Virus record (IMG/VR): IMGVR_UViG_3300037470_000177
Location: 1-38,126 of that record
From: a virus
Lineage: Duplodnaviria; Caudoviricetes
Length of the DNA: 38,126 nt
Strand: one strand, 5' to 3'
Both the position numbers and the translations under genes were made by a program. Shown here piece by piece: positions 10,214 through 36,844 of the stretch. How positions within the stretch are numbered: position 1 is the first letter of the stretch; every line of letters begins with the position of its first letter. The notes beneath the pieces are model-generated. The model was not told the origin of the DNA, made no database searches, and saw nothing but the letters and a program-made list of their open reading frames with translations.

Positions 10214-10599
10214 CAATTCGCCTCTACGTACTCGGACAATCCCAGTACCACGGTGCGCTCTGCGTCCTGCGGTACGGCTACCCCGGCGCTGGTCATACTG
10301 GTCAATTTAATGCGTTGAAGCCCAGCAAATGGAGCTGGGTCAAACACCAAGATGGTGTTCGCGTTAACGGCATAAGTTAGGAAGTCGCCGTCGGTGTTGG
10401 TCACGCCGTAGAAATTCGTACTTAGGTCTACGCTCGCCTGGAAGCCGATACGCGCGTTTGTCCAGTTGGTTGAGAACTGAATGCAGGACAGAGTGAGGCC
10501 AGTAATATCAATCTCTTCGCTCACGCCAGCGGCTGCGGTGGAGAACTCCACAGAAGCAAACGTGCGGCTACTCGGTTTCGGGTGCTGTGGCTTCATCAC
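10213..10599 (-). CDS. Hypothetical beta-rich, Ser/Thr-rich protein
   Basis: 128-aa ORF in operon, overlapping the TerS end. Confidence 0.65.
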   Translation of the reverse strand: MMKPQHPKPSSRTFASVEFSTAAAGVSEEIDITGLTLSCIQFSTNWTNARIGFQASVDLSTNFYGVTNTDGDFLTYAVNANTILVFDPAPFAGLQRIKLTSMTSAGVAVPQDAERTVVLGLSEYVEAN

Positions 10600-11059
10600 T
10601 CTGTTCCCCTATCAGGTCTTGAGTCGCCTTCGCAAGCACAAAGGCAATGCGGCGGGCGGCTTCCAAATCGGACATGTCGTCGACGATGAGTGTACCACGG
10701 TCACCCTGGTTGTCATCGCTCTTGCCCTTCCACATTTCGGACTGGCGATTAGTCAGCCAGAATATGCAAGCTGCTGTATCAACTGGAACTATGACTTCCT
10801 CACGGAAGATCCCATCCTTGGTTTCCTTGTACTTGTTGATCTTGTACCCGCACGCCTTCTTGAACAGCGCACCGACCACCATCGCGTCGGCCTGCAGCCT
10901 ACCATCGCGCCACGCAGAAGCGAACTCGGGATACTTCTCTTCCCAAGCGTGCAAGGTAGATACTGAGTGGCCAAGAAGGCGGGCAATCTCGGCATCTTTG
11001 AGGCCCGCCATACTCAGGTCGCGTACCCTCGCTGCGTAGGAGGGCTGATACGTAGTCAT
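10568..11059 (-). CDS. terS: Terminase small subunit
   Basis: HTH (EIARLLGHSVSTLHAWEEKYPEF), ALFKKACGY and DTAACIFWLTNR motifs; start moved to ATG at 11059 (ATGA overlap with pseI). Confidence 0.85.
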   Translation of the reverse strand: MTTYQPSYAARVRDLSMAGLKDAEIARLLGHSVSTLHAWEEKYPEFASAWRDGRLQADAMVVGALFKKACGYKINKYKETKDGIFREEVIVPVDTAACIFWLTNRQSEMWKGKSDDNQGDRGTLIVDDMSDLEAARRIAFVLAKATQDLIGEQSDEATAPETE

Positions 11060-12045: not shown

Positions 12046-12445
12046 GGCTGTAGGTCACTTGAATGAATTTGAAACCGAGGCGGTCAAACAGACACCGCGA
12101 TGCCCAGTTGCCGGGATTGATATTTGCCAGGAACGGGCCGTCATGCTGCTTCATCAGCTCTTTAATAGCTGCGTGAGCGAAGCCATTGCCCCTGCATTTC
12201 TCGAATATCGCAATGCCTATCTCGTTCTGCCTGGTCAGGTATGCAGAGCCTACTAAGCGCTCGCTATGCTTAATCAGATACCACGCCCTGTACGGCTTCG
12301 ACTGTATAAAAGCCACGTGCGCGTCCCAGCCAGGCATTTCCTTGTGCGAAATAGACTGTTCCGGCAAGCGCTCTTCGAGCAATCTGTACAGCAGGCGGCA
12401 ATGCGGAGTGTGATTTACATCCACTTCTACCAGTTCAATGCTCAT
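12038..12445 (-). CDS. GNAT N-acetyltransferase (PseH-like)
   Basis: RGNGFA acetyl-CoA motif, N-AS-LF-RLGF; start at ATG 12445 (ATGA overlap). Confidence 0.75.
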   Translation of the reverse strand: MSIELVEVDVNHTPHCRLLYRLLEERLPEQSISHKEMPGWDAHVAFIQSKPYRAWYLIKHSERLVGSAYLTRQNEIGIAIFEKCRGNGFAHAAIKELMKQHDGPFLANINPGNWASRCLFDRLGFKFIQVTYSHD

Positions 12446-13200
12446 ACCCTTACCTCCCAGCCTTTCCCCTGCAGGTACTCGGCTGCACCGTATGGTGTTG
12501 CGTCTGTCCACTGGAACATGGCGCCAGAGGCCACCGCTGACGCGCCGGCCTTCAATGCCCTATCCATATGCCCGTAGTCCCCACATCCGCCGTTGGCTAT
12601 CACTGGAATGCTGACAGCCTTGGCGATCTTCCTGATAAGCCCCAGGTCGTACCCATTCATCATGCCATCGTTCATCACGTTCGTGACGATCAGCTCGCCG
12701 GCACCGTACATCTCCATGTCCTTGGCGAACTGCACAGGGCTGTAGAAGTGCGTTTCGGCGCCGCAGTTGGTGGTGAGGAACCAGTTGCTGCAGTTCGGGT
12801 CGTATACTGCGTCGACTGCCACGACAATGGCCTGGCTGCCGAACTTCTTCGCTGCATCGCGCACCAACGACACCGTGTTGAACGCAGCGGTACCGATCAC
12901 TACTTTGTCAGCGCCGTTGGCTAGAAGTTCCCTAACGTGCTCCATACAGCTCACGCCACCACCTGCGGCGATGGGCATGAAACACCTCTCAGTGAGATTC
13001 TTTATCATTTCCACGTCAGGATAGCCGCGTGCAGTGGCTCCAACGTCCAGCACCACCAGTTCATCGACTTTGCGCATCTGGTATATCTCGGCAGCCTGCA
13101 TAACATTGCCGACGGCGCGCTGGGAGTTGAACTGCTTACCCTTCACCAGAAGGCCGTCGCGGGTAAGCATTACCGGAATGATGCGACGTGCGAGGCTCAT
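12442..13200 (-). CDS. HisF-like cyclase of acetamidino-sugar modification (WbuZ-like)
   Basis: RIIPVML, DELVVLDV, GADKVVIG, DGMMNGYD, PVIANGG; adjacent to the N-acetyl sugar amidotransferase; start ATG 13200. Confidence 0.85.
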   Translation of the reverse strand: MSLARRIIPVMLTRDGLLVKGKQFNSQRAVGNVMQAAEIYQMRKVDELVVLDVGATARGYPDVEMIKNLTERCFMPIAAGGGVSCMEHVRELLANGADKVVIGTAAFNTVSLVRDAAKKFGSQAIVVAVDAVYDPNCSNWFLTTNCGAETHFYSPVQFAKDMEMYGAGELIVTNVMNDGMMNGYDLGLIRKIAKAVSIPVIANGGCGDYGHMDRALKAGASAVASGAMFQWTDATPYGAAEYLQGKGWEVRV

Positions 13201-14261
13201 TTTTTGTTGCTCTCGGGAGTGAATTTGTCGATCAGCATATCCAGCTGCTTGCGGTTTATACCCAGCCGGTCGCATACCTGCGTCATCGATACGCCTGCGT
13301 AGCGGGTAGGGAACAATCCCTCGCGCCTGGCCAGGATCTTTTCGGCTTCCACACGGTTTATGTCACCGTTGCGTATATCCACCGACAGCTGGGCGCAGGC
13401 CCTGCCGTAGCCGTATTTCTTCCACATCATGTAGTCATGCAGCCCGGTCATGGCGTTATCCAAGTTCTCCCAGGGCCACCAGTTGCCGTCGAACGGCAAT
13501 TCGTACTCCATGCCGGCGTCTTCCGCGATCTGCGCGTTCTCGCGGCTATTCCAGCGGAGGTACTGCCCCAGGAAGTGTGCTTCGACTCCAGCCTTCTCAA
13601 TCGCAGCGTCAGTGGGGAACTCGTACTCGGCCATGTCGGCGCGGGTTATGCCGTCCCAGCCAACCATGTCAGCTGGACGCAGGCCGAGAAAACCCCCGAA
13701 CTCTGAAACCCATCGACGGGTCATCTGCTTGGCATCTTCCGTGCCTAAAGGCCCACCATACGCTGCCTGCGGATTCTCCCCGTAAAACACCAAAGGTATG
13801 CCCAAAGCAACAGCCATACGTATGGGCGAAGTGAATATTGCGACATGTTCCGGCCATGATACGTCTCCCACCAGGGTCAAACCGAGCAAGTTCAACTTGG
13901 CGCGCACTGTCTGGTTCGGTGTTACCTCAATCGTCGGCGCATAACGTTTCAGGTTGTCGATATTCCGGCGACCCAGGTCGGTCAGCATGCAAGTGGTAGC
14001 CGTCACGATCAGCGGCTTTACGCCCATGCAAAGCAGACTCAGCACCTGCGCCGTCGAATCCTTGCCGCCACTGGACGCGACGATGCAGTCATACGGGCCC
14101 TTACCCCTATGACGGTCGAGCAAGGCAATAAGTTCCCCCTTGCGCGCCTTCCAATCTACCTGCTGCTGCGCGTCGTGGTTCAAGCAGGCCGAGCAAACGC
14201 CGTTGACGAAAGCGGTATCAGGCCTGTTTGCACTCATCAGACACCTAGTGCACCTTTGCAT
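13197..14261 (-). CDS. N-acetyl sugar amidotransferase (WbuX/WbpG/PseA family)
   Basis: CTRC...CSAC, PP-loop SSGGKDS, FYGEN, KYGYGRA; start moved to ATG 14261. Confidence 0.88.
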   Translation of the reverse strand: MQRCTRCLMSANRPDTAFVNGVCSACLNHDAQQQVDWKARKGELIALLDRHRGKGPYDCIVASSGGKDSTAQVLSLLCMGVKPLIVTATTCMLTDLGRRNIDNLKRYAPTIEVTPNQTVRAKLNLLGLTLVGDVSWPEHVAIFTSPIRMAVALGIPLVFYGENPQAAYGGPLGTEDAKQMTRRWVSEFGGFLGLRPADMVGWDGITRADMAEYEFPTDAAIEKAGVEAHFLGQYLRWNSRENAQIAEDAGMEYELPFDGNWWPWENLDNAMTGLHDYMMWKKYGYGRACAQLSVDIRNGDINRVEAEKILARREGLFPTRYAGVSMTQVCDRLGINRKQLDMLIDKFTPESNKK

Positions 14262-14715
14262 AGTTACCTCCTGTGCGCTTTTCGCGTTTGTAAGCTGCGT
14301 GGCAATCGCGGTGGTGGGCCGTATTCCTGTTTGGCTTGACGTACATATTCCCTGGCGCGTCGTACTGCTTACAGTGCACACACTTCAACCAGCTAGCGTG
14401 GCCGCACGCCTCGTAAGCTCTAGTCCGCTGGTGAATCAAGACGTGGTAAGACTGGTCAGGGCATATAACCAGATTCGACGGGTCATCGTTACTGTGATCT
14501 AGATCAACGTGGTGCACTACAACTCCATCTGGTAGCTTTTTACCTAAAGCGCGCTCGGCAACAGCTATGTAATTAGTGCAGTTTTCAGCTTTCCTCGGCT
14601 GTGCTTCCCCTGCCTCACCGCTACTGCACAGACGCTGATAGTGCATGTTGCACAAACCTTTAGCTCTATGCGGCCTGCTACAGCCTTCAACATCGCATCT
14701 AACGCATCGATTCAT
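14245..14715 (-). CDS. HNH homing endonuclease
   Basis: CDVEGC...GLCNMHYQR, VVHHVDLDHSNDDPSNL...YHVLIH; start ATG 14715. Confidence 0.85.
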   Translation of the reverse strand: MNRCVRCDVEGCSRPHRAKGLCNMHYQRLCSSGEAGEAQPRKAENCTNYIAVAERALGKKLPDGVVVHHVDLDHSNDDPSNLVICPDQSYHVLIHQRTRAYEACGHASWLKCVHCKQYDAPGNMYVKPNRNTAHHRDCHAAYKREKRTGGNYAKVH

Positions 14716-15307
14716 TGACAGGCTTCTCCAGCAGGAAGTAGGTAATGTCGTCGCCGTCGTCGGTGTGGTACTTGAACCCATACTTCAACAGCTTCAAGTC
14801 CGGGTACAGCTCCATCAGCCTGCCGGCGAAGTCGTCAGCCCATAGAGCTTGAAAGTGCCCCCGGTACAGCAGGCCGCGCCGCTTGGTCGCGTAATACTCG
14901 GCGATGCAGATGTAACGCGAAGACAGGTTGTATATGCCGCGCAGCGTTTCTTCCAGCACTTCAAGCGGCTGGTGAATCAGGAAGCCCCGCGTCAACACCA
15001 GATCGTACTTGCCGTGTAGTTGTGCTTCGAGAAATGAAGCGTTATACGGCGATATGCCGCGAGCCTTCATCGTTTCGCAGGCCATAGAGTTGATATCAAG
15101 CCCTACCAGTACCCGCTTACCCATCATGTAATTCCCGATGGCTGCCAGGTTGTCACCCTGGCCGGCGCCCAGCTCCAGTACCGAGGTAAGTTCGCTGAAA
15201 CGCCCTGACAGCACCTCATACCAGAACTCGTTGCGATTCTTCTGCACGTTGCGCCCATGGTAGTCATCACCGAACTTGCCCTGCCACAGCTTCTCCTGCT
15301 TATTCAT
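14699..15307 (-). CDS. Pseudaminic-acid-biosynthesis-associated SAM methyltransferase
   Basis: QEKLWQGKFGDDYHGRN N-terminus, VLELGAGQG SAM motif, YDLVLTRGFLIH, YRGH...LW-DF. Confidence 0.85.
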   Translation of the reverse strand: MNKQEKLWQGKFGDDYHGRNVQKNRNEFWYEVLSGRFSELTSVLELGAGQGDNLAAIGNYMMGKRVLVGLDINSMACETMKARGISPYNASFLEAQLHGKYDLVLTRGFLIHQPLEVLEETLRGIYNLSSRYICIAEYYATKRRGLLYRGHFQALWADDFAGRLMELYPDLKLLKYGFKYHTDDGDDITYFLLEKPVNESMR

Positions 15308-15425
15308 CACCATCGACTCCCTTCGCGCCGTACTTCCAGCTCCCATAGATATTGCCAATGCCGAACCCAGATACGAGTGCGACTATGGCTATCACCAGCC
15401 ACGAAAAATCAGTTAATTCAAGCAT
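15300..15425 (-). CDS. Small membrane peptide (41 aa)
   Basis: Manual: MLELTDFSWLVIAIVALVSGFGIGNIYG...; fills the gap, overlapping both neighbours. Confidence 0.45.
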   Translation of the reverse strand: MLELTDFSWLVIAIVALVSGFGIGNIYGSWKYGAKGVDGDE

Positions 15426-16017
15426 CGTCGAGCCTCGCAAACATCTTCATTGCACGCTTCCAGTCCTCGTGCGTGTTGATATCGCAGATCCTTTCGTCTG
15501 CGACGTGGATCATCCGCGTGTATTCATTGATCAATGGAATTTCATCGATAAAGTCGCAAGTGCGGCCCCAGTAGAATTGACCGGCATCACGCAAGTCTGG
15601 ATACCCGACACTGAACACGAACGTAGTGAGGTCGCTTGCAACCAGCATCGCGTAACCATCACACAGATCCTCTACGCTCATGAGCGGCGATGTTGCGTAT
15701 ATGCAGCAGGCTACGTGGCCAGCTTGATCGTTCGGCCCTAGACCCATCGCCTGCAAGCATTCGCGTACCACCTCTTGCGTGCCAACGTCATCAGCACCAT
15801 ATGCAGGATCACGCCTGTGCACCTTCGCCCCGTACGCCTCTGCGAGCAGCGATATCTCATCGTCGTCCGTCGATACAACGATATGATCGAACAGCCCGCT
15901 TTCCTTCGCCTTCTGAATTGAATAGGCGATGATGGGCTGGCCATAGAAGTCCTTGATATTCTTGCGTGGGATCCGCTGGCTCCCACCACGCGCAGGGATT
16001 ACTGCGATAACGCTCAT
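15418..16017 (-). CDS. pseF: CMP-nonulosonate synthetase (cytidylyltransferase)
   Basis: IPARGGSQRIPRKNI, VSTDD, CCIYATSP, DAGQFYW, DINTHEDW. Confidence 0.9.
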   Translation of the reverse strand: MSVIAVIPARGGSQRIPRKNIKDFYGQPIIAYSIQKAKESGLFDHIVVSTDDDEISLLAEAYGAKVHRRDPAYGADDVGTQEVVRECLQAMGLGPNDQAGHVACCIYATSPLMSVEDLCDGYAMLVASDLTTFVFSVGYPDLRDAGQFYWGRTCDFIDEIPLINEYTRMIHVADERICDINTHEDWKRAMKMFARLDDA

Positions 16018-16274
16018 GCCCTATATCCCTCTAGCAAAGTTTCAATAAGCGAGCCATCCAGCGCCACATAGACTAGATACCTGCCGTGCTGATCCTGCAA
16101 CTTCTCTAGCTTGTAGATCGTTGTATCGAATTTCGATGTAGCCATCGGGTCGGCGGGCTGGGATATGGTTGCGGGGCATTGCTCGAAGAATGGCATGCAC
16201 AATTCAGGCGACAGGTATTCGACTTCACGCCATTGGCCGTCGGCGGGCCCACCTATGAATAAAACCTTCATCAC
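16014..16274 (-). CDS. Hypothetical protein
   Basis: 86 aa, FIGGPADG N-terminus, coupled in operon. Confidence 0.65.
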   Translation of the reverse strand: MMKVLFIGGPADGQWREVEYLSPELCMPFFEQCPATISQPADPMATSKFDTTIYKLEKLQDQHGRYLVYVALDGSLIETLLEGYRA

Positions 16275-16594
16275 AGCACCTCTGCCAGTATCGAGTCGAC
16301 TACCTGCATCGCCGTCTTCTGCGGCCCCGCCTTGCCCATCGTCCGCATGATGTGGCCAGTACGGGCAATCAATGCCAGGCGCTGCATATCAGTGATTCCC
16401 CTTGTCGTCTGTACATGCACTTCGACCCCGCACACCTCGGCGGCATGCAGTATCGAGTTGGCCACGCTTACTGCCAGTTCCGGGTCGAGCACGTACTTCC
16501 TCGACTCAGTTTGATCGTTGGTTACAGTCTCCGCTTCGACTACCACGTTCTGTTCAGTGCTGTCAGTCCTGACGATCAGCTTGATGTTTTTCAT
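16271..16594 (-). CDS. Hypothetical protein
   Basis: 107 aa, overlapping start/stop coupling. Confidence 0.65.
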   Translation of the reverse strand: MKNIKLIVRTDSTEQNVVVEAETVTNDQTESRKYVLDPELAVSVANSILHAAEVCGVEVHVQTTRGITDMQRLALIARTGHIMRTMGKAGPQKTAMQVVDSILAEVL

Positions 16595-17214
16595 CTGAAC
16601 ACCTCAAACGTGGATAGATCAGGGTAGTCGTCGTTCGGCAGTGGCTTATTGTGCTTCGGCAGGACGGACAGCTTGTGCAGCAGCCTGGCCGCTACATCCG
16701 GCGACATGTAGCAGTGATATCCAATTTCCGTAAACGTATCCTTGTTAGGTGGCACGCCTTCTGTTCTACCATCAAAGCGCATGCGTCTAAGCCACGCGTC
16801 TGCATGTACATCGTCCAGCAGGATCGCTCCCCCCTGGGTATCGCCCAGTACCTTTGTGGCGTGGAATGAAACGCACTGCATAAACCCGCTAGTGTACATG
16901 CCACCACTAAAGAACCTGGCGCTATCCCATACTGGTGATGGCTCCAGCCTGTACATGCCGCACCATTCCTCTTCCCGGAACGCTACCTCAGCACCAGCGT
17001 GGATAATGCTCATTGGCACGCCGACATACGTCTTACTTGGAATGGTTACTACAGGCGCGGGCCTGGGGCGTATAAGCCCGCAACGGTCGACGTACCACTT
17101 CACGGCCAATAACAGCGCCATGGTGCAACTGTTCACTGCTACGCAATACGGTGCGCCTGTGTACTCACATACTGCGCGTTCGAAGTCACGCACTACCTGA
17201 AAGGGATTAGACAT
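16591..17214 (-). CDS. DegT/DnrJ/PseC-family PLP aminotransferase, unusually short
   Basis: VAVNSCTMAL, WDSA, SFHATK (PLP lysine), GGAIL; 207 aa. Confidence 0.8.
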   Translation of the reverse strand: MSNPFQVVRDFERAVCEYTGAPYCVAVNSCTMALLLAVKWYVDRCGLIRPRPAPVVTIPSKTYVGVPMSIIHAGAEVAFREEEWCGMYRLEPSPVWDSARFFSGGMYTSGFMQCVSFHATKVLGDTQGGAILLDDVHADAWLRRMRFDGRTEGVPPNKDTFTEIGYHCYMSPDVAARLLHKLSVLPKHNKPLPNDDYPDLSTFEVFR

Positions 17215-18067
17215 TGGCCAAGTGCTCTTTCAATTCGTCGATGGTCATACGCCTGGCCGTATCGCTGCACAGCCCTTCACGCATGGATTCATGAAGTTTT
17301 TCAAACTCAGGTAAACCCTTGGCGTACTTGAACCACGTAGGGCCCATTGCTTCTAGCAGATCGCCCAGGCGATATGCCGGCAACCATTCAGGTATCTCCA
17401 GCTCGCCTCCCCTCATGCGAAGCGCCAGTTCCCACACAAGGTTGACAGCCTGGCCGATGGTCATGAAGAACCTCGTACACTCCAGATCAGTCACATAGAC
17501 CGGGTCGCCCCGCACCATCGCCTCTTTCCACTTCGGAACGACTGAGCCCTGGGCATTCCATACGTTGCCATACCTGACAGCCGCAAACATCGGCCCCCGC
17601 GTACCGTGCATGTTGTTTGCTGCAAGCAGCAAGCTTTCTCCCAGGGCCTTTGACTGGCCATAGGGCGATACAGGCTGGAAGGCTTTATCTGAGCTCAGAC
17701 CAACTACACGCTTAACGCCTGCTTCCGTTGCGGCTTCAATCAGATTCATAGTCCCAAGGACGTTTGTCTTGACCATTTCATCTGGATTGTAGGCACCAGT
17801 CTCGATTCGCTTTAAAGCTGCGGCGTGAAAGATTGTGTCAGAGCCCCTACAAGCTCGTTTAAGCCTATCTAAGTCACGAACGTCACCCACCATCCACCTG
17901 AGGCGTGAATCATCGCCTAAGGCATCGCGCATCGCCGCCTGGGCATGTTCACCACGTGAGTAGACGCAAATTCTGTCGATATTGGTGTTTTGGAGTACGG
18001 AACGAACAAAGGCTTGTCCGAATGTACCTGTGCCGCCAGTCACGAGAATCGAGTTGATCATATTCAC
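17207..18067 (-). CDS. pseB: UDP-GlcNAc 4,6-dehydratase (PseB/FlaA1 family)
   Basis: ILVTGGTGTFG, GDVRD, HAAALK, SSDKA, YGQSK, RYGNV, TRFFM. Confidence 0.9.
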   Translation of the reverse strand: MNMINSILVTGGTGTFGQAFVRSVLQNTNIDRICVYSRGEHAQAAMRDALGDDSRLRWMVGDVRDLDRLKRACRGSDTIFHAAALKRIETGAYNPDEMVKTNVLGTMNLIEAATEAGVKRVVGLSSDKAFQPVSPYGQSKALGESLLLAANNMHGTRGPMFAAVRYGNVWNAQGSVVPKWKEAMVRGDPVYVTDLECTRFFMTIGQAVNLVWELALRMRGGELEIPEWLPAYRLGDLLEAMGPTWFKYAKGLPEFEKLHESMREGLCSDTARRMTIDELKEHLANV

Positions 18068-27608: not shown

Positions 27609-27702
27609 TTGACAGGTTCTAGATGTGTAGTATCATAACACATATACGTTTTTCTTCAACTTTTGATTTTTTGGTTGACAGCCCTTTTTAAAGGTGTATT
27701 AT
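27609..27702. promoter_or_regulatory. Divergent sigma70-type promoters
   Basis: Plus: TTGACA(27609)-N16-TATCAT and TTGACA(27675)-N16-TATTAT. Minus: TTGAAG(27659)-N16-TATGAT with a TGn extension. Confidence 0.6.
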
Positions 27703-27878: not shown

Positions 27879-28379
27879 ATGCTATCAGTTAAATTCAAAG
27901 CCCCTATTGTGATCGACGAAAAAAATCTTGGCGCTCTGCTTTCCTTGGCCGGCGTTGCCGCCGAGGTCGAGCCGTATGCGGATGGCACGAAGCCTGGGCG
28001 CAAGCCGCGGGCGGCAGCTGCACCAGCGCCGGAGCCAGACGCAGCCGAACCTCAAGCTTCTACCCCGGAGCCAGAGGGTGTCAAGGGCAAAGGCAAGCCT
28101 GGGCGCAAGAGCAAAGCACAGAAAGAGGCTGAGGCAGCCGCCGCGGCTATCGAAGCCGCTGGCGCACCCATGACAGGTGAAGCCGAGGATCAACCAGCAG
28201 ACGACGGCGGCGAGGAAGTAGACGCCGGCACCCTGCTCAATCGGTTTTCGGGACTCATCGACAAAGATTTCGAAGCTGCGAAGGATCTACTTGATCGCTT
28301 CGGAGTGGCAAAGTTCAGTGATCTTCCTGAAACTGAGTTTGGCGCATTCAGCAATGCGCTTAGTGAAGCAGATAGTTGA
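27879..28379 (+). CDS. Hypothetical protein with acidic/Ala linker and two KPGRK motifs
   Basis: 166 aa, AAGG RBS. Confidence 0.75.
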   Translation: MLSVKFKAPIVIDEKNLGALLSLAGVAAEVEPYADGTKPGRKPRAAAAPAPEPDAAEPQASTPEPEGVKGKGKPGRKSKAQKEAEAAAAAIEAAGAPMTGEAEDQPADDGGEEVDAGTLLNRFSGLIDKDFEAAKDLLDRFGVAKFSDLPETEFGAFSNALSEADS

Positions 28380-28388
28380 GCGCTGGTG

Positions 28389-28496
28389 AGCCACTGTAGG
28401 TAAGGAACCCAATTAGACCAAGCGAGTCACCAAGCGGAAGGCACCCATACTACCGAAGCGAGTCAACAAACGAAAGAACCCCAGGTTTTCAAAGCG
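28389..28496 (+). repeat. TIGR-like dual-repeat guide array 1 (3 x 36 nt)
   Basis: AGCCA-ctgtaggta-AGGAACCCA-attagacca-AGCG|AGTCA-ccaagcgga-AGGCACCCA-tactaccga-AGCG|AGTCA-acaaacgaa-AGAACCCCA-ggttttcaa-AGCG; intergenic, exactly 108 nt. Confidence 0.9.
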
Positions 28497-28521
28497 ACAC
28501 TGATTAAAAGGAATCACGAAA

Positions 28522-29181
28522 ATGGCAAACGACATTACGAAGTTTTTCGGGGGGCACCAGCAGCCCGACCGGAAAAAAGCACTCGAAGCAATGGCCAATT
28601 ATGCTGCATCCAAGGCCGCTCTGTCTGGTAATCAAGCACTGCTCCGTCTCACCAAGACTGGTCAATGGGTCTTCGGTTCCGACAGCACCAAGCTAAAGGA
28701 TGGCACCGTGCTGATCGCCGACCCTGCGTCCCAGCAGTCCGGGTACGTCGCCTGGTGGTTGGGCAAGCCAGAAGCCGAGGTTATGCAGCCTCTGCACCTG
28801 GGCCCGGTGGATCCGTCGAAGTTGCCGGAGGTAAAATCGGGTAGCGTTCCACCTGGCGCCAAGAAGGCATCTGGTAAGGGATGGGAGGCGCAGTGCGCCA
28901 TCAGCTTCATCACTCAGGACAAGATCCCTCTGGCCCTGCTGTATAAAGCCTCTTCCCTCGGTGGTAAGAAGGCGTGCCTCACCCTGGCCGGCGATATCAT
29001 GTTCGGCATGACGGAAAACCCGGCCCGCTGCTACCCGGTGGTTGAGCTGCAGGTCGACAGCTATCAGCACAAGGAATATGGCGAGGTGTTCAATCCCGTG
29101 TTCGTGATCACTGGATGGCTGGACGAGAATGGAGAGGAGGTCAAGGATCTGGCAAAACTTGGCAAGGATGGTTTGCTCTAG
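28522..29181 (+). CDS. Putative ssDNA-binding/annealing protein of the phage PolA module
   Basis: 219 aa; G-WVFG, G-VAW, SY-HK-YG-V-P-F-I-GW pattern; function inferred from context. Confidence 0.5.
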   Translation: MANDITKFFGGHQQPDRKKALEAMANYAASKAALSGNQALLRLTKTGQWVFGSDSTKLKDGTVLIADPASQQSGYVAWWLGKPEAEVMQPLHLGPVDPSKLPEVKSGSVPPGAKKASGKGWEAQCAISFITQDKIPLALLYKASSLGGKKACLTLAGDIMFGMTENPARCYPVVELQVDSYQHKEYGEVFNPVFVITGWLDENGEEVKDLAKLGKDGLL

Positions 29182-29193
29182 CGAGGTAACACC

Positions 29194-29412
29194 ATGTTTA
29201 CGTCAGTGTTTTTCATCGTGTTCACGATTGTCCTGTCACCGACGGAGCACATCGGCCTGATCGGGCCGAAGTTTGAAACGATGGCAGAGTGCAAGGCAGA
29301 TCTGGAACCAGGCTATGCCTTCATCTACGCCGAGGCGGAAGCCCAGGGCTTCGAGGACTTCTCGCTCAATGCCCATTGCGTCGAGCACAAGCTGCCTACC
29401 AACGGCGTTTAA
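29194..29412 (+). CDS. Small membrane-anchored or exported protein
   Basis: Hydrophobic N-terminus, F-T-EC...C; GAGG RBS. Confidence 0.6.
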   Translation: MFTSVFFIVFTIVLSPTEHIGLIGPKFETMAECKADLEPGYAFIYAEAEAQGFEDFSLNAHCVEHKLPTNGV

Positions 29413-29555
29413 GCCAAGGTGCGCGAGGACCCCAAAGCGACCTAGCGAGCCACTATTCGTTAGAACCCCAAAGCCTCGAAGCGAGTCAGCTGCAACGAGA
29501 TACCCAAACTTGCCAATCGAGTCATCTAGCACGAAACACACATAGCGACCTAACG
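29412..29555 (+). repeat. TIGR-like dual-repeat guide array 2 (4 x 36 nt), directly upstream of the TasH-like gene
   Basis: Spacer pairs aggtgcgcg/aagcgacct, ctattcgtt/aagcctcga, gctgcaacg/aacttgcca, tctagcacg/tagcgacct; exactly 144 nt; last loop repeat is degenerate (AAACACACA). Confidence 0.9.
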
Positions 29556-29574
29556 AACTAACAGGTGAAAGATA

Positions 29575-30522
29575 ATGGACAAAGAAATTATTAAAGCCAC
29601 GATTGCGCCGAAGCAGGGCAACAAGTCCAAAGCTGGCGCCCCCCTCCCCAGTGATTACTCTCTCGTTGATGCTCACCGCGTACTGGACAAGGTAGACGGT
29701 GGCACGCTTCACGTGGACAACGTGGAGCTGCTGTTGCCGCGCGAGCACATGGAGTACCACGGCAATCTGCGTGTGCGTGATGAGTGGGGCACTCGTCTCA
29801 AGGCGTTGATGGACGACCGCTCCCAGGCGCTCAAGCTGCAGCTGAAAATCAACAATCAACTGCTGGCCTTCAAGCGTGGTACCGACGATTTCAATCCAGA
29901 GACTGCGGCTATCTTGGAGTCTATGCTCGTAGCCCCTACCACCTGGCTCCGCGATATAGACAAGCAGGTCACCAAGCACCTCAAGGCTTCTGCTGATCCA
30001 CTGGTGAAGTGCCTGCTGAACGTGCCTGGTTGCGGCCCGGTCACCACGGCGTACCTTATGGTCTATGTGGATCTGGAAAAGGCAGACTCCCCGTCAGCCC
30101 TCTGGAAGTACGTGGGCCTGCACTGCGCCTCTGGTGATCGGTACGTGAAGGGTGAGAAGGGCGGCGGCAACAAGACCCTGCGCACGATTCTCTATAACAC
30201 TGCCTGCAGCATGATGAAGCAGCCTGGTAACCCGTACCGTGAAGTCTACGACCAGACCAAGGCCAAGTACGCGAACAGCGACAAGATCGTGAAGTCCCGC
30301 AACACCCAGGGGCATCTGGTCGAGGTAGCTTGGAAGGACACCAAGCCGTCTCACCGCCACGGTGCCGCACTGCGTGCGATTATCAAGCACTTCCTGGCAG
30401 ACTTCTGGTTGATGGGTCGTCGGGCGTACGGACTGCCGGAGCGTACGTTGTACGCTGAACAGATCCTGCACCACGATGGGATCATCAAGCCGGAGTCGCG
30501 CGGGTGGAAGCTTGAGGGTTAA
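29575..30522 (+). CDS. tasH: TasH-like RNA-guided nuclease: N-terminal HNH, coiled coil, Nop/IS110-like RNA-binding domain
   Basis: HNH-like DAHR...GG...DNV...EH-EYHG; VPGCGPVTTAYL, SALWKYVGL and GNKTLR match the IS110 Transposase_20/Nop-like domain; no DEDD domain; flanked on both sides by 36-nt dual-repeat arrays. Confidence 0.85.
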   Translation: MDKEIIKATIAPKQGNKSKAGAPLPSDYSLVDAHRVLDKVDGGTLHVDNVELLLPREHMEYHGNLRVRDEWGTRLKALMDDRSQALKLQLKINNQLLAFKRGTDDFNPETAAILESMLVAPTTWLRDIDKQVTKHLKASADPLVKCLLNVPGCGPVTTAYLMVYVDLEKADSPSALWKYVGLHCASGDRYVKGEKGGGNKTLRTILYNTACSMMKQPGNPYREVYDQTKAKYANSDKIVKSRNTQGHLVEVAWKDTKPSHRHGAALRAIIKHFLADFWLMGRRAYGLPERTLYAEQILHHDGIIKPESRGWKLEG

Positions 30523-30546
30523 GACCATTAGGAGCCAGGGACGGCC

Positions 30547-30978
30547 AGCCAAGATGTAGGAGAAACCCACCGGTGCTAAGCGAGCCACTAACAGTTAGTA
30601 CCCCAACATTGCGTAGCGAGCCACCCACTAGAAGAACTCCATCAAGACCAAGCGAGCCAACGAAGGAAAGAACACCACCTTCTGTGAGCGAGTCAATCCA
30701 CACAAGCGCCCCAGGATAAGTCAACGAGCCATCCTCTGAAAGGAACCCACGCTTCAATAGCGAGTCAGATACGCCAAGACACCCGGCCCAACGAATCGAG
30801 CCATTAACTTGGAGACACCCAAGTTACCCAAGCGAGCCATTACATCGAAGAACCCCAATTGCACTGAGCGAGTCACTAAGCGGAAGCACCCCATGTGATT
30901 GCAGCGAGTCAAAAAAATAAAGAACCCCGACAATCATAAGCGAGTCACCGAATAACAGATACCCATTAACCGAGAACG
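30547..30978 (+). repeat. TIGR-like dual-repeat guide array 3 (12 x 36 nt), directly downstream of the TasH-like gene
   Basis: Edge repeat A(G/A/T)CGAGYCA at 30579, 30615, 30651, 30687, 30723, 30759, 30795, 30831, 30867, 30903, 30939; loop repeat (AGAACCCCA consensus) 18 nt after each; 24 variable 9-nt spacers; exactly 432 nt. Confidence 0.95.
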
Positions 30979-31005
30979 TATTGCAGCCATACAGGAAATA
31001 CTAAA

Positions 31006-31263
31006 ATGAACAAGTCGAACATAGGAAACGCCAGTGAGTTGCGCGCAGCACTGCTGCTTGCTATCGAAGCAGTTTGCGCTGGTCGCATGAACGTATCACA
31101 AGCAAACGCCGTAGTAGGTTTGTCAGCGGAGGTTCACAAGTCTATCAGGCAAGAGTGGGACATGAGGGTGTACGCCGCCGAGAACTTTGCTATGCAAAAT
31201 GGCGAAGTAATTAAACTGCTTGATAGCGCGGTCGAACCTGTTGAGGTACAAGGCGATGAGTAG
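31006..31263 (+). CDS. Hypothetical protein
   Basis: 85 aa, AGGA RBS. Confidence 0.65.
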   Translation: MNKSNIGNASELRAALLLAIEAVCAGRMNVSQANAVVGLSAEVHKSIRQEWDMRVYAAENFAMQNGEVIKLLDSAVEPVEVQGDE

Positions 31264-31822
31264 GGTGAGTGCAGAAAGTTTGGGTCGTGGGTGCGACATG
31301 TTATTGAAGACTGGGTGGTATGGTAACGCCTACGACGTTACGCCGCACGTTGCGCCAGATACTTACGCGGAGAAGCAATTCGTAGAAATTACTTACCGAG
31401 GTGAAGTTGTACTAGTGCCGATGCGCGGTAGCAGAGTATCAATCGGTGCTAGGCGAGAGTGCCTGTGGCGACCTACACCTTTTAACTACTCTTACCACTT
31501 CGCAAAATGGTTGGGAGAGCGGATTGCTAAAAGGATGTTCAGGACTGGTGAGCGTGTTATCTGTTTGCACGGTAATAAAGACATTGGCGATTACTACACT
31601 AGGAGATTCGCAGGGCGAGTGTTTATGGAAGAACTAAATCACTTCTTTCAATTTAAACTGGATGAGCTGAATGGTGTCAAACACTCTACGCGCTGCGAGC
31701 ATTCTAAATGCCAAATGGTTTCTTACAACACCTTAATATTTGCAGTTGCAGATACTAAAGAACAGCTAGACGCCGCGTGTATATTAGCCTGGGAATTAGG
31801 GGATACATATGATCCACGCTGA
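31256..31822 (+). CDS. Hypothetical protein (visibly more AT-rich than flanks)
   Basis: ATG 31256 overlapping upstream stop; overlaps the polymerase start. Confidence 0.6.
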   Translation: MSRVSAESLGRGCDMLLKTGWYGNAYDVTPHVAPDTYAEKQFVEITYRGEVVLVPMRGSRVSIGARRECLWRPTPFNYSYHFAKWLGERIAKRMFRTGERVICLHGNKDIGDYYTRRFAGRVFMEELNHFFQFKLDELNGVKHSTRCEHSKCQMVSYNTLIFAVADTKEQLDAACILAWELGDTYDPR

Positions 31823-33761
31823 CTTTGAAACACGCAGCATCATCGATCTGACAAAGACTGGTGCATACGTCTACGCGGCCCATCCCACCACCGACGTTAA
31901 CTGCCTGGGCTGGGCCGTCGACGATGATGAGGTTCAGCTCTGGATGCCTGGTGATCCCTTCCCGGTCGACTTGAAGTACGCCCTCAAGGAAGGCCACATG
32001 ATAGCAGCATGGAATGCGCAATTCGAACGCCTGATCTGGAACAACGTGTTCATCAGGCAGGGCGCCCCCAAGCTGCCGATTGACCGCTTCTACTGCATTG
32101 CCGCGCTGTCCAGGGCCAGGGGTTACCCAGGCAAGCTGGAACGTGCCGCGCAGTTCGCTGAGCTGGATATAGGCAAGGACATGGAAGGCCACCGCCTCAT
32201 GATGAAGCTCTGCAAACCGCGCCGTATCGAGGACGACGGCACCATTGTCTGGTGGGACGACCCCATGGAGCATTACCGCCAAGGTGAGTATTGCGTCCGC
32301 GACGTGGATGTGGAGCGGGCCATGTACCACAGCTTCATTCCCTTCACCGATGAGGAGCTGGACGACTATCACCTGTCCGAAGAAATCAACGACCGCGGCG
32401 TCTGCGTCGACGTGGAACTGTGCCACGCTGCAGTGTCTGGCGCGGCCATGGAAAAGCTCAGCTCAGACGACGTGATCACTTCGCTAACCAACGGTGCCGT
32501 CACTTCCCATACCCAGGTGCAGAAGATACTTGCCTGGGTGGAGCAAGAGTGGAAGCCGCTCGACAGCCTGAACAAGTCAGATGTGTATGATGCGCTGGCC
32601 GAGGACGACATACCGCCTGTGGTTGCCGACGTGCTTGAACTGCGCTTGGAGAACGCCAAGGCTGCAGTGGCCAAGTTCGATGCGATCCTGCGGCACCAGC
32701 GGTTCGGCGTTGTGTACGGTGGCTACATCTACCGGGGCGCCGGCCAGACCGGGCGCTTCACCAGCATGGGCGTGCAGAAGCACAACCTGCACCGCAAGTC
32801 GAACAACGATGCTATCCCGATCTTGAAGAAGCGCGGTATCCCTGGGCTGCGGATGATGGGCGATCCCGTCCACCTGCTGGCACAGATGACGCGCCCGGTG
32901 TTCGTTGCCAGTGAAGGCACACAATTCCTTATCGCTGACTTCGCGCAGATCGAGGCACGTGTTACCGCCTGGCTGGCAGGTGAACAGTGGCTGCTGGATA
33001 TATTCGCTGATCCCGACGGCGATCCCTACTGCGCATTCGGCACCACTGCTTTCGGTAGGGTCATTACCAAGGCCGACGAGCTGGAACGATTCGTAAGCAA
33101 AGGCTGCGTGCTGGGCCTTGGCTTCGGCGGCGGTGAGGGCGCCCTGGCCAGGACGTTGAAGAAAGAGAACATCACCTTGCCGCAGAAACAACGTCAAGAT
33201 CTTGTAAAGACCTACCGTGAGCTGAACGCTGACACCAAGAAGCTGTGGAAGGCACTCAGCTCAGCCGTCCTCATGGCCATGTACGGGCCGGGAACGCTCG
33301 TACCCGTAGGGCCCATCACCTATCTGTTCGACGGCCAGCATCTGTGGTGCAAGCTGCCTTCTGGCAGGCTCATCTGCTACCCCTACGCCAAGGTGGTGCA
33401 GGATGAGTGGGGCGATAGCGTTGAGTACCGTCGCGGCAACCGCAATCCCAAGTCAGGGGTCATGGAGTGGCCCACTGTACGGCTGTGGCACGGCCTGTTG
33501 ACGGAGAACCTGGCCCAGGCCATAGCCTTCGACTTGTTGATGGGTGCTCTGCGTAGGCTGCGCGCCTGGGACGTACGGTTGCACACCCATGATGAGGTGG
33601 TTGCCGAGGTGTGGGGGGATCTGGCAGAGGAACGCTTGCAACAGATGCTGCAGATCCTGTGCGCCGGAGAGGAATGGTCTGAGGGTCTGCCGATAGCAGC
33701 AGAAGGCATGATCGAATCCCGGTATGGTAAGGGCAAAACAAGAGCGAAGTATCTACGATGA
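31809..33761 (+). CDS. polA: Phage family A DNA polymerase with 3'-5' exonuclease
   Basis: ExoI DFETRS, ExoII AWNAQFE, ExoIII YCVRDV, TGRF, motif A DFAQIEAR, motif B R-K-LGLGFG, motif C HTHDE. Confidence 0.95.
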   Translation: MIHADFETRSIIDLTKTGAYVYAAHPTTDVNCLGWAVDDDEVQLWMPGDPFPVDLKYALKEGHMIAAWNAQFERLIWNNVFIRQGAPKLPIDRFYCIAALSRARGYPGKLERAAQFAELDIGKDMEGHRLMMKLCKPRRIEDDGTIVWWDDPMEHYRQGEYCVRDVDVERAMYHSFIPFTDEELDDYHLSEEINDRGVCVDVELCHAAVSGAAMEKLSSDDVITSLTNGAVTSHTQVQKILAWVEQEWKPLDSLNKSDVYDALAEDDIPPVVADVLELRLENAKAAVAKFDAILRHQRFGVVYGGYIYRGAGQTGRFTSMGVQKHNLHRKSNNDAIPILKKRGIPGLRMMGDPVHLLAQMTRPVFVASEGTQFLIADFAQIEARVTAWLAGEQWLLDIFADPDGDPYCAFGTTAFGRVITKADELERFVSKGCVLGLGFGGGEGALARTLKKENITLPQKQRQDLVKTYRELNADTKKLWKALSSAVLMAMYGPGTLVPVGPITYLFDGQHLWCKLPSGRLICYPYAKVVQDEWGDSVEYRRGNRNPKSGVMEWPTVRLWHGLLTENLAQAIAFDLLMGALRRLRAWDVRLHTHDEVVAEVWGDLAEERLQQMLQILCAGEEWSEGLPIAAEGMIESRYGKGKTRAKYLR

Positions 33762-34000
33762 GTTTTCACATATTCCCCGACGAAGTACGCAAGGCCCGTA
33801 GATTACACTTTTGCGTGTGGTGCGGGCAGAGCATATACGCAGGTGAGTCTTACGCGCACGTAGACGTGGTTACTGACGAAGGTTTTCAACACCAGTATTG
33901 GCACCATGAATGCCTCGACGCTTCGCGTGAAGACCTTGAATACGGCGACGAGTTTTCGCCATACGACAACGAGAGGCCATCAGGTGAAGATAGGAATTGA
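33758..34000 (+). CDS. Small Zn-binding hypothetical protein
   Basis: RKAR-H-CVWCG...H-EC. Confidence 0.65.
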   Translation: MSFHIFPDEVRKARRLHFCVWCGQSIYAGESYAHVDVVTDEGFQHQYWHHECLDASREDLEYGDEFSPYDNERPSGEDRN

Positions 34001-34460
34001 TCCAGGGTGCAGTGGCGCCATCGTGATTCTCAACGACGACCTCAGCTACGTAGCTCACATACCCATGCCAGTGGTGAAAGTCGGCACCAAGAGCCGCGTC
34101 AACGGCGCAGCTGTCCGCGCTTTCATACTGGATGGATTAAGGGATGGTCACGCGCACGCCTACATCGAGCAAGTCGGGGCGATGCCAGGGCAGGGTGTAT
34201 CCAGTATGTTTACATTCGGCCACGCCGCTGGAGTGGTAGAGGGTATCATCCAGGGCCTGGGCATACCTTACACGCTGGTCACGCCGCAAGCCTGGAAAAA
34301 ACAGGCGGGCCTTATAGGCCAGGACAAAGACGCGGCAAGGTCACGTGCCATCCAGCTGTACCCTGAGCTGCGGGCCCTGGACTCCAAGGCCAAGGGTCAG
34401 GCACTGGCTGACGCCATTCTAATCGCGCACTACAAAGCGCCGAGGGATAACCTGCTATGA
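33984..34460 (+). CDS. RuvC-like Holliday junction resolvase
   Basis: KIGIDPG, YIEQV, F-FG, P-WKK, ADA-LIA; start GTG 33984. Confidence 0.85.
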   Translation: MKIGIDPGCSGAIVILNDDLSYVAHIPMPVVKVGTKSRVNGAAVRAFILDGLRDGHAHAYIEQVGAMPGQGVSSMFTFGHAAGVVEGIIQGLGIPYTLVTPQAWKKQAGLIGQDKDAARSRAIQLYPELRALDSKAKGQALADAILIAHYKAPRDNLL

Positions 34461-34651
34461 ACGAAGTGACTGTAGACCGTGAAGCTTTAAGGGCAGTGCT
34501 GCAGGCTTTAACTGGCGAGCCGCACTACATCCGCGAGCTGCAAGCCACTATGGGTTTGCCGAATAACCCCATCGAGAAACTCATTAACGACTTCAATGCT
34601 TCTGTAGCCTACCAAACGATAACGGACGGGTTGTTCGGAGGTGAAGAATGA
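34457..34651 (+). CDS. Hypothetical protein
   Basis: 64 aa, coupled. Confidence 0.6.
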   Translation: MNEVTVDREALRAVLQALTGEPHYIRELQATMGLPNNPIEKLINDFNASVAYQTITDGLFGGEE

Positions 34652-35307
34652 GTACACACGCCCTGTTCTCACCGTCATCTGCTGAGCGCTGGTTGAAGTG
34701 CGGTTACTCGATCAAGATGAAACCCTTCTATCCCAGCACCGACACTGCTGCATCACTGAACGGCACCAAGCACCACGGCATCGCCGGCATTCATCTGGAG
34801 AACGGCACCGACTCTCGCATACCTGGGATCAACGTCTACCTGAATGCTGTTCGCAATACGGTGATCGAGGGTGGCAGTGAACTTCTCGTCGAACGCAAGG
34901 TCGTAATTGCTAAGGATCTGTGTGAAGGCACCCTGGACGCCGGAGTGATCGCGCCTGACTGGTTCCACATCTTCGACTTGAAGTGGGGCAAGTCACCCGT
35001 CCACGCCACCGACAATCCTCAGTTGATGCTGTACGCCCTTGGCATCGTGCGAGAGTACCAGCTGGGCAAGGGCACGCCCTGCACCCTGTCCATCGCGCAG
35101 CCGAACGCCACCTCGGGCTTCCCGTTGAAGCACTGGAACACCGACGTGGATCGACTGTTGAAGTTCTACGAGAAGGTGCAGCGCGCCTTCGAAGAGGGCC
35201 TGAAAGAGAACCCGAAAGCCGTGGCCGGGTCGCACTGCTACTGGTGTCCTGCCAAGATGAACTGTGAAGCTTACCTGATTCACTCAGGCAAAAAGCGTAG
35301 GGGTTGA
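34648..35307 (+). CDS. DUF2800 / Cas4-like PD-(D/E)XK nuclease
   Basis: HALFSPSSAERWLKC, GT-HH, GTLD, DLKWG, QLMLYA, HCYWCPAK-C. Confidence 0.85.
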   Translation: MSTHALFSPSSAERWLKCGYSIKMKPFYPSTDTAASLNGTKHHGIAGIHLENGTDSRIPGINVYLNAVRNTVIEGGSELLVERKVVIAKDLCEGTLDAGVIAPDWFHIFDLKWGKSPVHATDNPQLMLYALGIVREYQLGKGTPCTLSIAQPNATSGFPLKHWNTDVDRLLKFYEKVQRAFEEGLKENPKAVAGSHCYWCPAKMNCEAYLIHSGKKRRG

Positions 35308-35675
35308 AGATGAACACACTTGAAATGTTGCATAGGATCGACGAGCTGAAAGCCAAGCGCGATATGATTAGCGACTTGATCAACGGTTACACCGAGCGGC
35401 TTGAAGACGCCATGAAGGCGTCAGGTGATGAGTGCTTGGAGACAGCCACCGCCGTTGCCTTCTGGCGCAAGGAAACAAAGGTCGAGGTAGCCGACTGGGC
35501 CTGGCTGCAGAAATATATCAAAGAAGAAGACGCCTTCGACATACTGCAAAAGCGTATCTCACCAGCGGCACTAAAGCGCCGAGTGGATGCCGGCGCAGAG
35601 CTGGAAGGTGTTACTATTCGAGAGAGCAAGAGCTTCATTGTTGGGAGTAGAAAGTATGAAAAACCGGAGTCTTAA
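35304..35675 (+). CDS. Hypothetical coiled-coil phage protein
   Basis: 123 aa, V-DW...I...AFD-LQKRIS...GV. Confidence 0.7.
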   Translation: MKMNTLEMLHRIDELKAKRDMISDLINGYTERLEDAMKASGDECLETATAVAFWRKETKVEVADWAWLQKYIKEEDAFDILQKRISPAALKRRVDAGAELEGVTIRESKSFIVGSRKYEKPES

Positions 35676-35856
35676 ACCGCGCCTGCTGTACGGCGGGCCA
35701 TGGGGTGGCAAGGTATCTGGCATTCCGTGGGGCGGAACCCTGATATTCACCCTCGGTGAGCACCATGGGTTCTACAAAGGCGATGGCCGTTGGATTGAAA
35801 TGCCCAGGCCAGATGCCACGTGGATGACGATAGATGAAGTATCGGAGTTTAAGTGA
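35656..35856 (+). CDS. Hypothetical protein
   Basis: ATG 35656 with GGGAG RBS; GGPW-G motif. Confidence 0.55.
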   Translation: MKNRSLKPRLLYGGPWGGKVSGIPWGGTLIFTLGEHHGFYKGDGRWIEMPRPDATWMTIDEVSEFK

Positions 35857-36134
35857 TGGATAAGCTAAGCGTTGCAGTGATAGGCCTGCTGCCTCGGCAG
35901 GCCGAGCGGGTGTCTGCACTGTACGGCGAGGATCTTGAGCTACGGTTTATACAGACTGACACTGCCATGCAGAAGATCCGCGCCACCGTGGAGTCAACAG
36001 ACCACGTGTTGATCATGACGAAGTTCACACCCCACGATATCCAAGACGGACTTAGGAAGCGTGGCAAGATGGAATTTTGCAACGGCGGTACATCATCTGT
36101 GGGGCAGAAGCTGGACGAACTGCTAGGCCGATGA
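35853..36134 (+). CDS. Small alpha/beta protein (DUF2325-like)
   Basis: VAVIG, DHVLIMTKFTPH, GGTSS; its stop abuts array 4. Confidence 0.55.
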   Translation: MMDKLSVAVIGLLPRQAERVSALYGEDLELRFIQTDTAMQKIRATVESTDHVLIMTKFTPHDIQDGLRKRGKMEFCNGGTSSVGQKLDELLGR

Positions 36135-36278
36135 AGCCATTGTGCCGCAGGAACCCACACCTCAGTAGCGAGCCAATGGGAATAAGAACCTCAGTCCACC
36201 AAAGCGATCCAAAAGCTATAAGAATCTCAGACAGTTAAAGCGAGCTATCAAGCGGAAGAACCCCACTCTCACTAAGCG
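36135..36278 (+). repeat. TIGR-like dual-repeat guide array 4 (4 x 36 nt), distal, at the operon end
   Basis: Spacer pairs ttgtgccgc/cacctcagt, atgggaata/gtccaccaa, aaagctata/gacagttaa, tcaagcgga/ctctcacta; exactly 144 nt. Confidence 0.9.
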
Positions 36279-36303
36279 AAGCCCTGTTAACGCAGGGCTT
36301 TTT
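36279..36303 (+). terminator. Rho-independent terminator directly after array 4
   Basis: AAGCCCTG-TTAACG-CAGGGCTT-TTT; overlaps the stop of the convergent hydrolase gene. Confidence 0.8.
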
Positions 36304-36844
36304 CTCTGTTGTTCACTATCACTGGGCCCCACCTCACCGCCACCTCAGCAGTACCTATCGAGGTATGCCGGTGGGGCATCTCCCATTGCTTGACACGTGG
36401 GTCTTTTCCGATGTACCCGGTCTTGCCCATGCGCCCCCACAGGGAGAAAGGCATCAGCGCCGACAGCCAGACCACATTATCCCGGTGTGACCAGTAGACG
36501 TGGATGAATTGCAAGTGCGGGTCGAACTCAACGTCATCATCCAGCGCCGGGTTGATCAGCACCAGGCCCCTGGTCTTCACTTGCTTGGTGATACCGTACG
36601 CTACAGCCGCACCATTGGAGTGACCCAGTATGATCTGCTCAGGCCACACCTCGTTGGCCATGCGGTTGACTATCCGTCGGTTGATGAAGGGCACGATGAC
36701 TGAGAACATAACGGGAATGTACATGTACTTGAGCAGCACCACCTTGAACTTAGGCATGATGTGCCGGAAGAATGAAATCGATGAGCGCCCTGGGTCAATC
36801 GTTTTGATCCCATGCAGCAGATATACCCTCACCATGACGATCAC
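36287..36844 (-). CDS. Alpha/beta hydrolase (lipase/esterase-like)
   Basis: LLHG oxyanion motif, LGHSNG nucleophile elbow, LINPAL, D-VV, C-terminal His. Confidence 0.8.
   Translation of the reverse strand: MIVMVRVYLLHGIKTIDPGRSSISFFRHIMPKFKVVLLKYMYIPVMFSVIVPFINRRIVNRMANEVWPEQIILGHSNGAAVAYGITKQVKTRGLVLINPALDDDVEFDPHLQFIHVYWSHRDNVVWLSALMPFSLWGRMGKTGYIGKDPRVKQWEMPHRHTSIGTAEVAVRWGPVIVNNREKALR

Follow-up and report, generated by a model that had tools for sequence, protein, structure and literature searches.

The closest described relative of the system treated here is SpTIGR of Salicola phage CGphi29 (PMC12045711, PMC13421893). Its effector, SpTasH, addresses a 16-bp target, with 8 bp for each of two spacers on opposite strands (PMC12045711; 10.64898/2026.08.11.744272, MM1-MM16), and Y289 and H296 are its catalytic pair in guide maturation (PMC13421893). 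We analyzed all 38,126 nt of the virus record IMGVR_UViG_3300037470_000177 (Duplodnaviria; Caudoviricetes), called the window below, which carries a TIGR-TasH system with guide units at five sites. The system resembles SpTIGR in its 53% identical effector, 36-nt unit register, AG/CCA boxes, HNH motif, Y/H dyad, arrays that end in half edge repeats, and a terminator after the last array. CGphi29, however, has one 11-unit array adjoining tasH and no further unit in 40.7 kb, whereas the window has guides at five sites up to 20 kb away, a lone unit closed by a stem, and candidate natural targets.

In the published stem-loop TIGR class (PMC12045711; 10.64898/2026.09.09.750476), units are likewise closed by a flanking stem. 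Its Tas proteins are without the Y/H loop and its units lack edge repeats, whereas the window has a full dual-repeat unit on a stem and a TasH with the dyad. CRISPR arrays are also repeat-spacer arrays processed into guides, but the window units have two 9-nt spacers each and a Nop-domain effector. TIGR arrays have been described upstream of, downstream of, on both sides of or inside tas, with one locus of three subarrays about 450 nt apart, and what TIGR units naturally target, as well as how they arise and spread, were named as open questions (PMC12045711; 10.64898/2026.09.09.750476). The discussion of PMC12045711 proposes mobile-element competition and biased inheritance; the word "homing" appears in that paper solely in the title of a cited work. 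In the open-access literature, which excludes subscription papers such as the primary study of SpTasH processing, we found no account of natural TIGR targets, of lone distal guides or of homing. The published array finder works around tas loci and requires four or more spacer intervals; a single unit at 20 kb, or one in a genome that lacks tas, would escape it.

A dual-repeat TIGR-TasH locus with guides at five sites

Judged by its effector and repeats, the system is a dual-repeat TIGR-TasH locus, a known type. Its parts are as follows, the arrays being defined by a repeat-position profile and by unit layout.

29575 to 30522, plus strand: tasH, encoding a 315-aa protein with HNH nuclease, coiled coil and Nop domain (phmmer match to the solved SpTasH chain 21kl_A, E = 8.8e-107)
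28389 to 28496, plus strand: TIGR array 1, 3 units, between open reading frame (ORF) 27879-28379 and ORF 28522-29181
29412 to 29555, plus strand: TIGR array 2, 4 units, immediately upstream of tasH
30547 to 30978, plus strand: TIGR array 3, 12 units, downstream of tasH
36135 to 36278, plus strand: TIGR array 4, 4 units, at the end of the replication operon, 5.6 kb from tasH
9492 to 9527, minus strand: lone tigRNA unit, 20 kb from tasH and within the operon of virion genes (score 31.1 with a profile not trained on it)
9469 to 9553, minus strand: stem closing the lone unit, with 19 contiguous pairs (5 of them G-U) and 4 outer pairs, then a T run (fold, pair list, and alignment with L103 and L104)

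TasH and SpTasH are identical at 165 of 309 aligned residues. A match to chain 9mty_A (E = 4.1e-12) and one to Pfam PF02371 place the protein among the Nop-domain Tas proteins. D32, H34, N49, H58, H62, Y293 and H300 align with SpTasH D28, D30, N45, H54, H58, Y289 and H296, respectively. The HNH motif residues D32, N49, H58 and H62 are invariant in 30/30 aligned homologs, which points to an N-terminal HNH nuclease, and Y293 and H300 form a predicted processing dyad. We rejected an IS110 transposon, a class defined by a DEDD RuvC-like recombinase domain and a bridge RNA: only the Nop-like PF02371 segment matches, and the N terminus aligns to the TasH HNH. The stem-loop TIGR class was also rejected, since edge repeats and the Y/H dyad are present and only the lone unit has a stem.

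A first, sequence-only reading of this DNA had listed 23 units of 36 nt in four plus-strand blocks. These units are there, 3, 4, 12 and 4 to a block and at the coordinates it gave, but the list was incomplete: a 24th unit, at 9527-9492 on the minus strand, had been overlooked. The 24 units thus occupy five places spanning 27 kb, an uncommon arrangement of a known kind. The AGCCA start described for the blocks holds for each block but not for each unit, as unit 4.3 begins with ATCCA and unit 4.4 with AGCTA. The unit boundary had been placed inside the edge repeat, and this is the register of mature SpTasH tigRNAs (Table S3 of PMC12045711). Each unit reads AGYCA, 9 variable nt, AGRAMCCCA, 9 variable nt, and AGCG, AACG or ATCG, that is, edge half, spacer A, then the loop repeat, then spacer B and an edge half, with box C/D motifs in both repeats. 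Positions 1, 5, 15, 22, 33, 35 and 36 are invariant in all 23 array units. With the repeat-position profile, array units scored 18.9 to 31.2; apart from the units, no site in the window scored above 9.1, and the maximum over 60 Markov-null genomes was 18.4. Arrays 2 and 3 flank tasH, the blocks end in half edges, and a terminator follows array 4, not array 3. Arrays 2 and 4 do begin at stop codons (array 2 shares sequence with the TAA of ORF 29194-29412, and array 4 comes straight after the TGA of ORF 35856-36134), but such starts are commonplace: of 30 related loci, 14 have their first downstream unit no more than 3 nt from the tas stop, and 26 no more than 30 nt from it.

Two details of array 3 are recorded here. 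Between the tasH stop and the array, at 30533-30546, lies a strain-variable half-unit remnant, an edge half with 9 nt and no loop. Spacer B of unit 3.8 (30799-30834) resembles a TIGR loop repeat (the L028/L029 consensus), is kept in L041, and might target the array of another phage.

Lone guides nearly match alleles of neighboring genes within the phage clade

We compared the guides with the window and its relatives in the SpTasH geometry. The sites concerned in the window are these.

9559 to 9574, minus strand: own allele of the lone-guide target, the last 16 nt of ORF 9559-10011 (13/16, three differences, all silent)
10101 to 10116, minus strand: site in ORF 10049-10216 that matches the lone guide of G027 (15/16; the G027 guide lies just after that gene)
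31809 to 33761, plus strand: polA, a family A DNA polymerase gene that is both context and target gene (Pfam PF00476, E = 1.7e-11)
32173 to 32188, minus strand: polA site that matches the last array unit before polA in G001 (15/16)

The lone guide of the window matches the G027 and G028 allele of the adjacent upstream gene at 15 of 16 positions, and all differences are silent. The G027 lone guide fits the window allele better than that of G028, which scores lower, or its own (10/16). The last G001 unit before polA matches the polA of L041 as well as that of the window (also 15/16); its own polA has 12/16, with four silent changes. The lone guide of G030 matches its own upstream gene, 41 nt away, at 14/16, and that of G001 its own next gene at 12/16, with all differences silent. 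Hence all four lone units of the clade (window, G027, G030, G001) come near to matching a neighboring gene.

Seven clade records yielded 58 guide-pattern units, a set that includes at least one likely chance pattern match. Three of the 58 had a one-mismatch hit in another record; six other geometries gave none, and 20 rounds of shuffled spacer pairings gave two. All three hits lie in the gene adjacent to the guide position, for which the chance per site is 4.6e-6, 4.6e-6 and 2.3e-5. Near-matches in which every difference is silent were found for 8/58 guides, compared with 14/400 random pairings (P = 9e-4) and 0, 2 and 1 of 58 in control geometries. In computation, these hits fit tandem 16-bp targeting on two strands. 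Unit 2.2 has an all-silent site with five mismatches in the window's own polA at 32214 (null, 3/400).

Other target searches were set aside. With 9+9 or 8+2+8 geometry no self target appeared, the best having four mismatches. Two scans of IMG/VR in these geometries, unlike the 16 bp of SpTasH, returned 25 and 9 hits, none homologous to the clade. Unit 1.3 also matches the window on the same strand at 16/18, which is at chance level given four geometries.

It is very improbable that guides repress the carrier's own neighboring genes by imperfect binding without cutting. Own near-matches exist, and Tas proteins lacking a nuclease repress transcription; the own alleles, however, have two to six mismatches and fit worse than kin alleles where kin were sampled, SpTasH is strongly mismatch sensitive (10.64898/2026.08.11.744272), and the HNH residues are intact.

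A family-blind scan covered 141 loci with 333 distinct units in about half of IMG/VR; the units tested had 200 nt of flanking sequence. Of the 14 lone units, 5 had a nearby site with three mismatches or fewer, in each case within 41-84 nt; of the 213 long-array units, 1 did (P = 2e-6). This clustering also suits the main rival to homing, in which spacers are captured from the carrier's neighboring DNA, silent self-escape follows, relatives retain the older allele, and the position of a unit marks its acquisition. Such local birth would account for the same guide-allele matches. It agrees with own alleles that are always nearer than chance and never perfect, and how units are acquired is left open in the literature (10.64898/2026.09.09.750476). 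On its own, however, it leaves two things unexplained, namely, orphan units in genomes without tas and the selected 19-bp, G-U-containing RNA stem around the lone unit. We consider it unlikely as the whole account, yet it is compatible with homing as a later function, and both may hold, the one for origin and the other for function.

Units vary among relatives at homologous sites

The lone unit stands on a stem with a predicted folding energy of -40.7 kcal/mol (z = -5.28; 0/200 shuffles as stable). At the homologous site in G027 and G028, whose flanks are 82 to 94% identical, the unit is absent and a short, plain terminator hairpin is found instead. G027 carries a different lone unit one gene upstream of this site, where the window is empty. 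The sequence-only reading had held that units spread into gaps away from the effector gene, and these empty sites, together with the second lone unit in G027, support it. It had also proposed comparing the same gaps in related phages: G001 and G030 have nothing in the array-4 gap and one lone unit each in the array-1 gap.

Strains in four sequencing runs have arrays at the same four gaps, with units inserted or replaced; other units occupy the array-1 gap in runs X1-X3 and the array-4 gap in runs X1-X4. Differences between strains include exchanges of whole units and half units. Such exchanges would be expected if the distal and lone units were inert remnants of recombination between arrays, and so would half edges at block ends and the three spacer pairs at most one mismatch apart across the window arrays, where 0.21 were expected. 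These near-identical spacers all contain the edge motif, however, and may be derived from the repeats. The lone unit reaches the upper end of the array score range and has its own stem and a site-specific match, and strains with 71 of ~560 nt different in the next gene still carry an unaltered unit 1.3, which makes inert remnants quite improbable. L041, with polA DNA 86% identical, has four of the window's guides in the same arrays and order with 1-2 of 18 spacer letters different, namely, unit 2.3 (1/18) and units 3.7, 3.8 and 3.12.

Among 40 related loci, arrays were present in 38, and blocks remote from tas, beyond other genes, in L001 and L037. Among 27 whole records, which are partly redundant, two had distal units, G001 and G020; two additional one-mismatch pattern hits were treated as chance, and no units were found in 32 further, more distant records. 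The complete genomes G030, G064 and G065 have orphan lone units and no match to the TasH profile, which is sensitive enough to detect divergent Tas in G069 and G071.

Several candidates were dropped. The far hit in L030 scored below its own null, and the distal arrays of L037 go with another Tas-like gene, a second one whose box D letters are different, and do not count as dispersal. That a relative had taken unit 1.1 into its array 4 was rejected, since the two disagree at 7/46 letters and a single strain is seen in all four runs. Sharing of half units amounted overall to 16 pairs versus 7 in the control and was weak outside close families. A count of full and half edges in 54 arrays was not used, as the pattern drops degenerate end units. 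Tolerance at spacer position 9 accounted for 5/6 differences to L041, yet only 7/30 over all near-identical pairs.

Some observations concern other records. In L037, a second TIGR locus at 14601-16417, 3.6 kb from the first, has a 377-aa Tas-like ORF and TG, not AG, in box D. Lone or far-off units occur in unrelated viral records (G064:16672; G065:35877 and 80745; G066:35852; G068:4730; G020:5479; G071:20883, 22090 and 41406); several of those in unrelated records are closed by stems of 8-17 bp, and one identical unit is common to G065 and G066. The near-identical phages L012-L018 carry 7-21 units and have single spacers in common that are newly combined as A/B pairs, which fits recombination at loop repeats.

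Proposed RNA-guided homing between related phages

Guide units, an effector, empty sites in relatives and guide-allele matches are all there, and we read them as lone and some edge guides that lie beside their targets, fit the alleles of relatives better than those of their carrier, and would direct TasH against related phages, in homing-like local gene conversion or marker exclusion; we put the probability of this at roughly 0.6. That lone guides adjoin their target sites is the likely reason for guide dispersal, and most long-array guides are probably aimed at other mobile elements.

The model is the free-standing homing endonucleases of T-even phages (SegF, SegG, MobE; PMC2988022, PMC2790892). 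There too an element with an HNH nuclease sits between genes of a phage operon, its target is in a neighboring conserved gene of related phages, and marker exclusion is expected. Repair from the carrier converts the recipient allele and brings the element along (PMC2988022); for MobE a nick suffices, and a passive neighbor is mobilized in trans (PMC2790892). In the window, unlike in these phages, RNA would set the specificity, one nuclease would serve many sites, and the cargo would be a 36-nt guide. As in a homing system, the target lies in the cognate locus of relatives free of the element, the own allele differs, and the empty site is adjacent; the best kin match is 15/16. By extension from SpTasH, the Y/H dyad would release 36-nt guides, and TasH would then target 16 bp across both strands. 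In a co-infection, it would cut or nick the relative's allele beside the empty site, the carrier allele being resistant, and repair templated by the carrier would give the relative both the resistant allele and the guide next to it. Gene conversion, spread of lone units and orphan units in genomes without tas are proposed by analogy with the endonucleases. Homing-like spread leads one to expect such orphans, and they are present in G030, G064 and G065.

Host double-strand RNases are possible processing enzymes for such a stem. The stem of the lone unit might present it to TasH or to a host RNase of this kind. A flanking stem could thus let a single dual-repeat unit be released, a possible step from dual-repeat to stem-loop guides; we hold this idea, which belongs to the wider proposal of multi-site homing given at the end, only tentatively.

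A number of points weigh against homing. Local spacer capture followed by self-escape yields the same static pattern, and orphan units may be relics of tas loss. It was the window's lone unit that drew attention to the 16-bp geometry, before the test of it. No guide matches any sampled allele at 16/16, and the single mismatches fall at target positions 7, 5 and 16, whereas in one study positions 2 and 8 were the main ones at which SpTasH tolerated a single mismatch (10.64898/2026.08.11.744272); in another, a mismatch at position 5 turned SpTasH into a nickase (PMC13421893). At these positions, then, SpTasH assays showed weakened cutting or nicking. The contrast of the family-blind scan with control geometries is modest (5/14 versus 3/42, P = 0.018). 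Three of its 14 lone units were known beforehand, and the new cases give only 4/11 versus 3/33 (P = 0.054). The new sites are near-matches scored by mismatches, silent-variant status being established solely among the clade sites. For 22 of the 23 array guides a candidate target is lacking, the best local sites being no better than controls. The window's lone unit is flanked by half edge repeats on both sides, while guide processing in Escherichia coli required full edge repeats (PMC12045711), and the auxiliary Nop residues named for SpTasH processing are identical at only 5/10 positions.

Operon layout and neighboring genes

The record is a 38-kb virus contig, spanned entirely by the window, with genes for a head-tail connector, capsid, terminase, SNF2 helicase and PolA. 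The whole record shows no terminal repeat and the genomes of relatives measure 55-67 kb, so the record may be incomplete. On the question of the host, the closest PolA matches are at ~35%, and the genomes of GTDB contain only two tas loci, both distant. No cas gene was found among the 37 ORFs scanned, except for a PD-(D/E)XK DUF2800 nuclease typical of such replication modules. Two putative transcription signals frame the replication operon.

27609 to 27702, plus strand: two sigma-70-like promoter matches (11/12) at the head of the operon (consensus match only)
36278 to 36310, plus strand: terminator-like hairpin with a 10-bp stem and a T run, directly after array 4

A sigma-70-like scan found no other plus-strand consensus promoter, and a weak terminator-like site lies on the plus strand inside the putative operon at 31284; overall, promoter and terminator scans were at chance level (5 versus 4.3 and 10 versus 9.0). 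Going by these consensus signals, the operon may be a single transcript from 27609-27702 to the terminator at 36278. It is plausible that, as the sequence-only reading supposed, guides are cut from one polycistronic replication mRNA and thereby segment it: the promoters, the single terminator after array 4 and the conserved Y293/H300 dyad fit this. TasH would cut internal edge repeats of arrays 1-3 and sever the operon transcript as a side effect, leaving leaders; downstream of these arrays are 19-27 nt leaders with purine-rich ribosome sites. Weak points are that array 4, as the end of the operon, segments nothing and that the blocks end in half edge repeats.

That such segmentation, acting on mRNA stability or translation, is the purpose of dispersal, with guide content secondary, is improbable. 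Only 3/14 gene junctions of the plus-strand operon exceed 12 nt, and all three carry arrays; with the retained dyad and the leaders, this speaks for it. The gaps are long, however, because arrays fill them, array 4 and its terminator close the operon, relatives have the same gaps without arrays or lack tas, and the guide-allele matches stay unexplained.

The slot of tasH and arrays 2-3 is filled differently in the complete relative G030 (L146:14090-13070, minus strand), by an ORF of 219 aa. It is flanked by four tracts of 8-15 GGY motifs each, with a period of 5 nt as described for the vrRNA of VIPR systems, and its protein matched only phrog_4652 (function unknown). It appears from these motifs that a single locus alternates between two RNA-guided systems, TIGR-TasH in the window and a candidate VIPR-like system in G030.

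Elsewhere in the window, a sugar-pathway block on the minus strand at 11056-18067, with NeuB, a HisF-like protein, cytidylyltransferase, aminotransferase and dehydratase, suggests synthesis of nonulosonic acid, perhaps for glycosylation of the virion. Read joints show that the small ORFs 33758-34000 and 34457-34651 are skipped in co-occurring strains.

Implications for TIGR biology

TIGR-TasH might be programmable multi-site homing, with a single nuclease acting for 36-nt guide cassettes, each of which homes next to the gene it targets, phages that lack tas included; we rate this wider proposal as possible, at somewhat less than even odds. If it is true, natural TIGR targets are named, namely, alleles of related phages, and the origin of units and their spread away from tas are explained. 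Guide-target pairs with empty sites and silent self-escape make both the question of natural targets and that of spread testable. An RNA-guided homing element in phages would connect TIGR biology with marker exclusion and gene drive.

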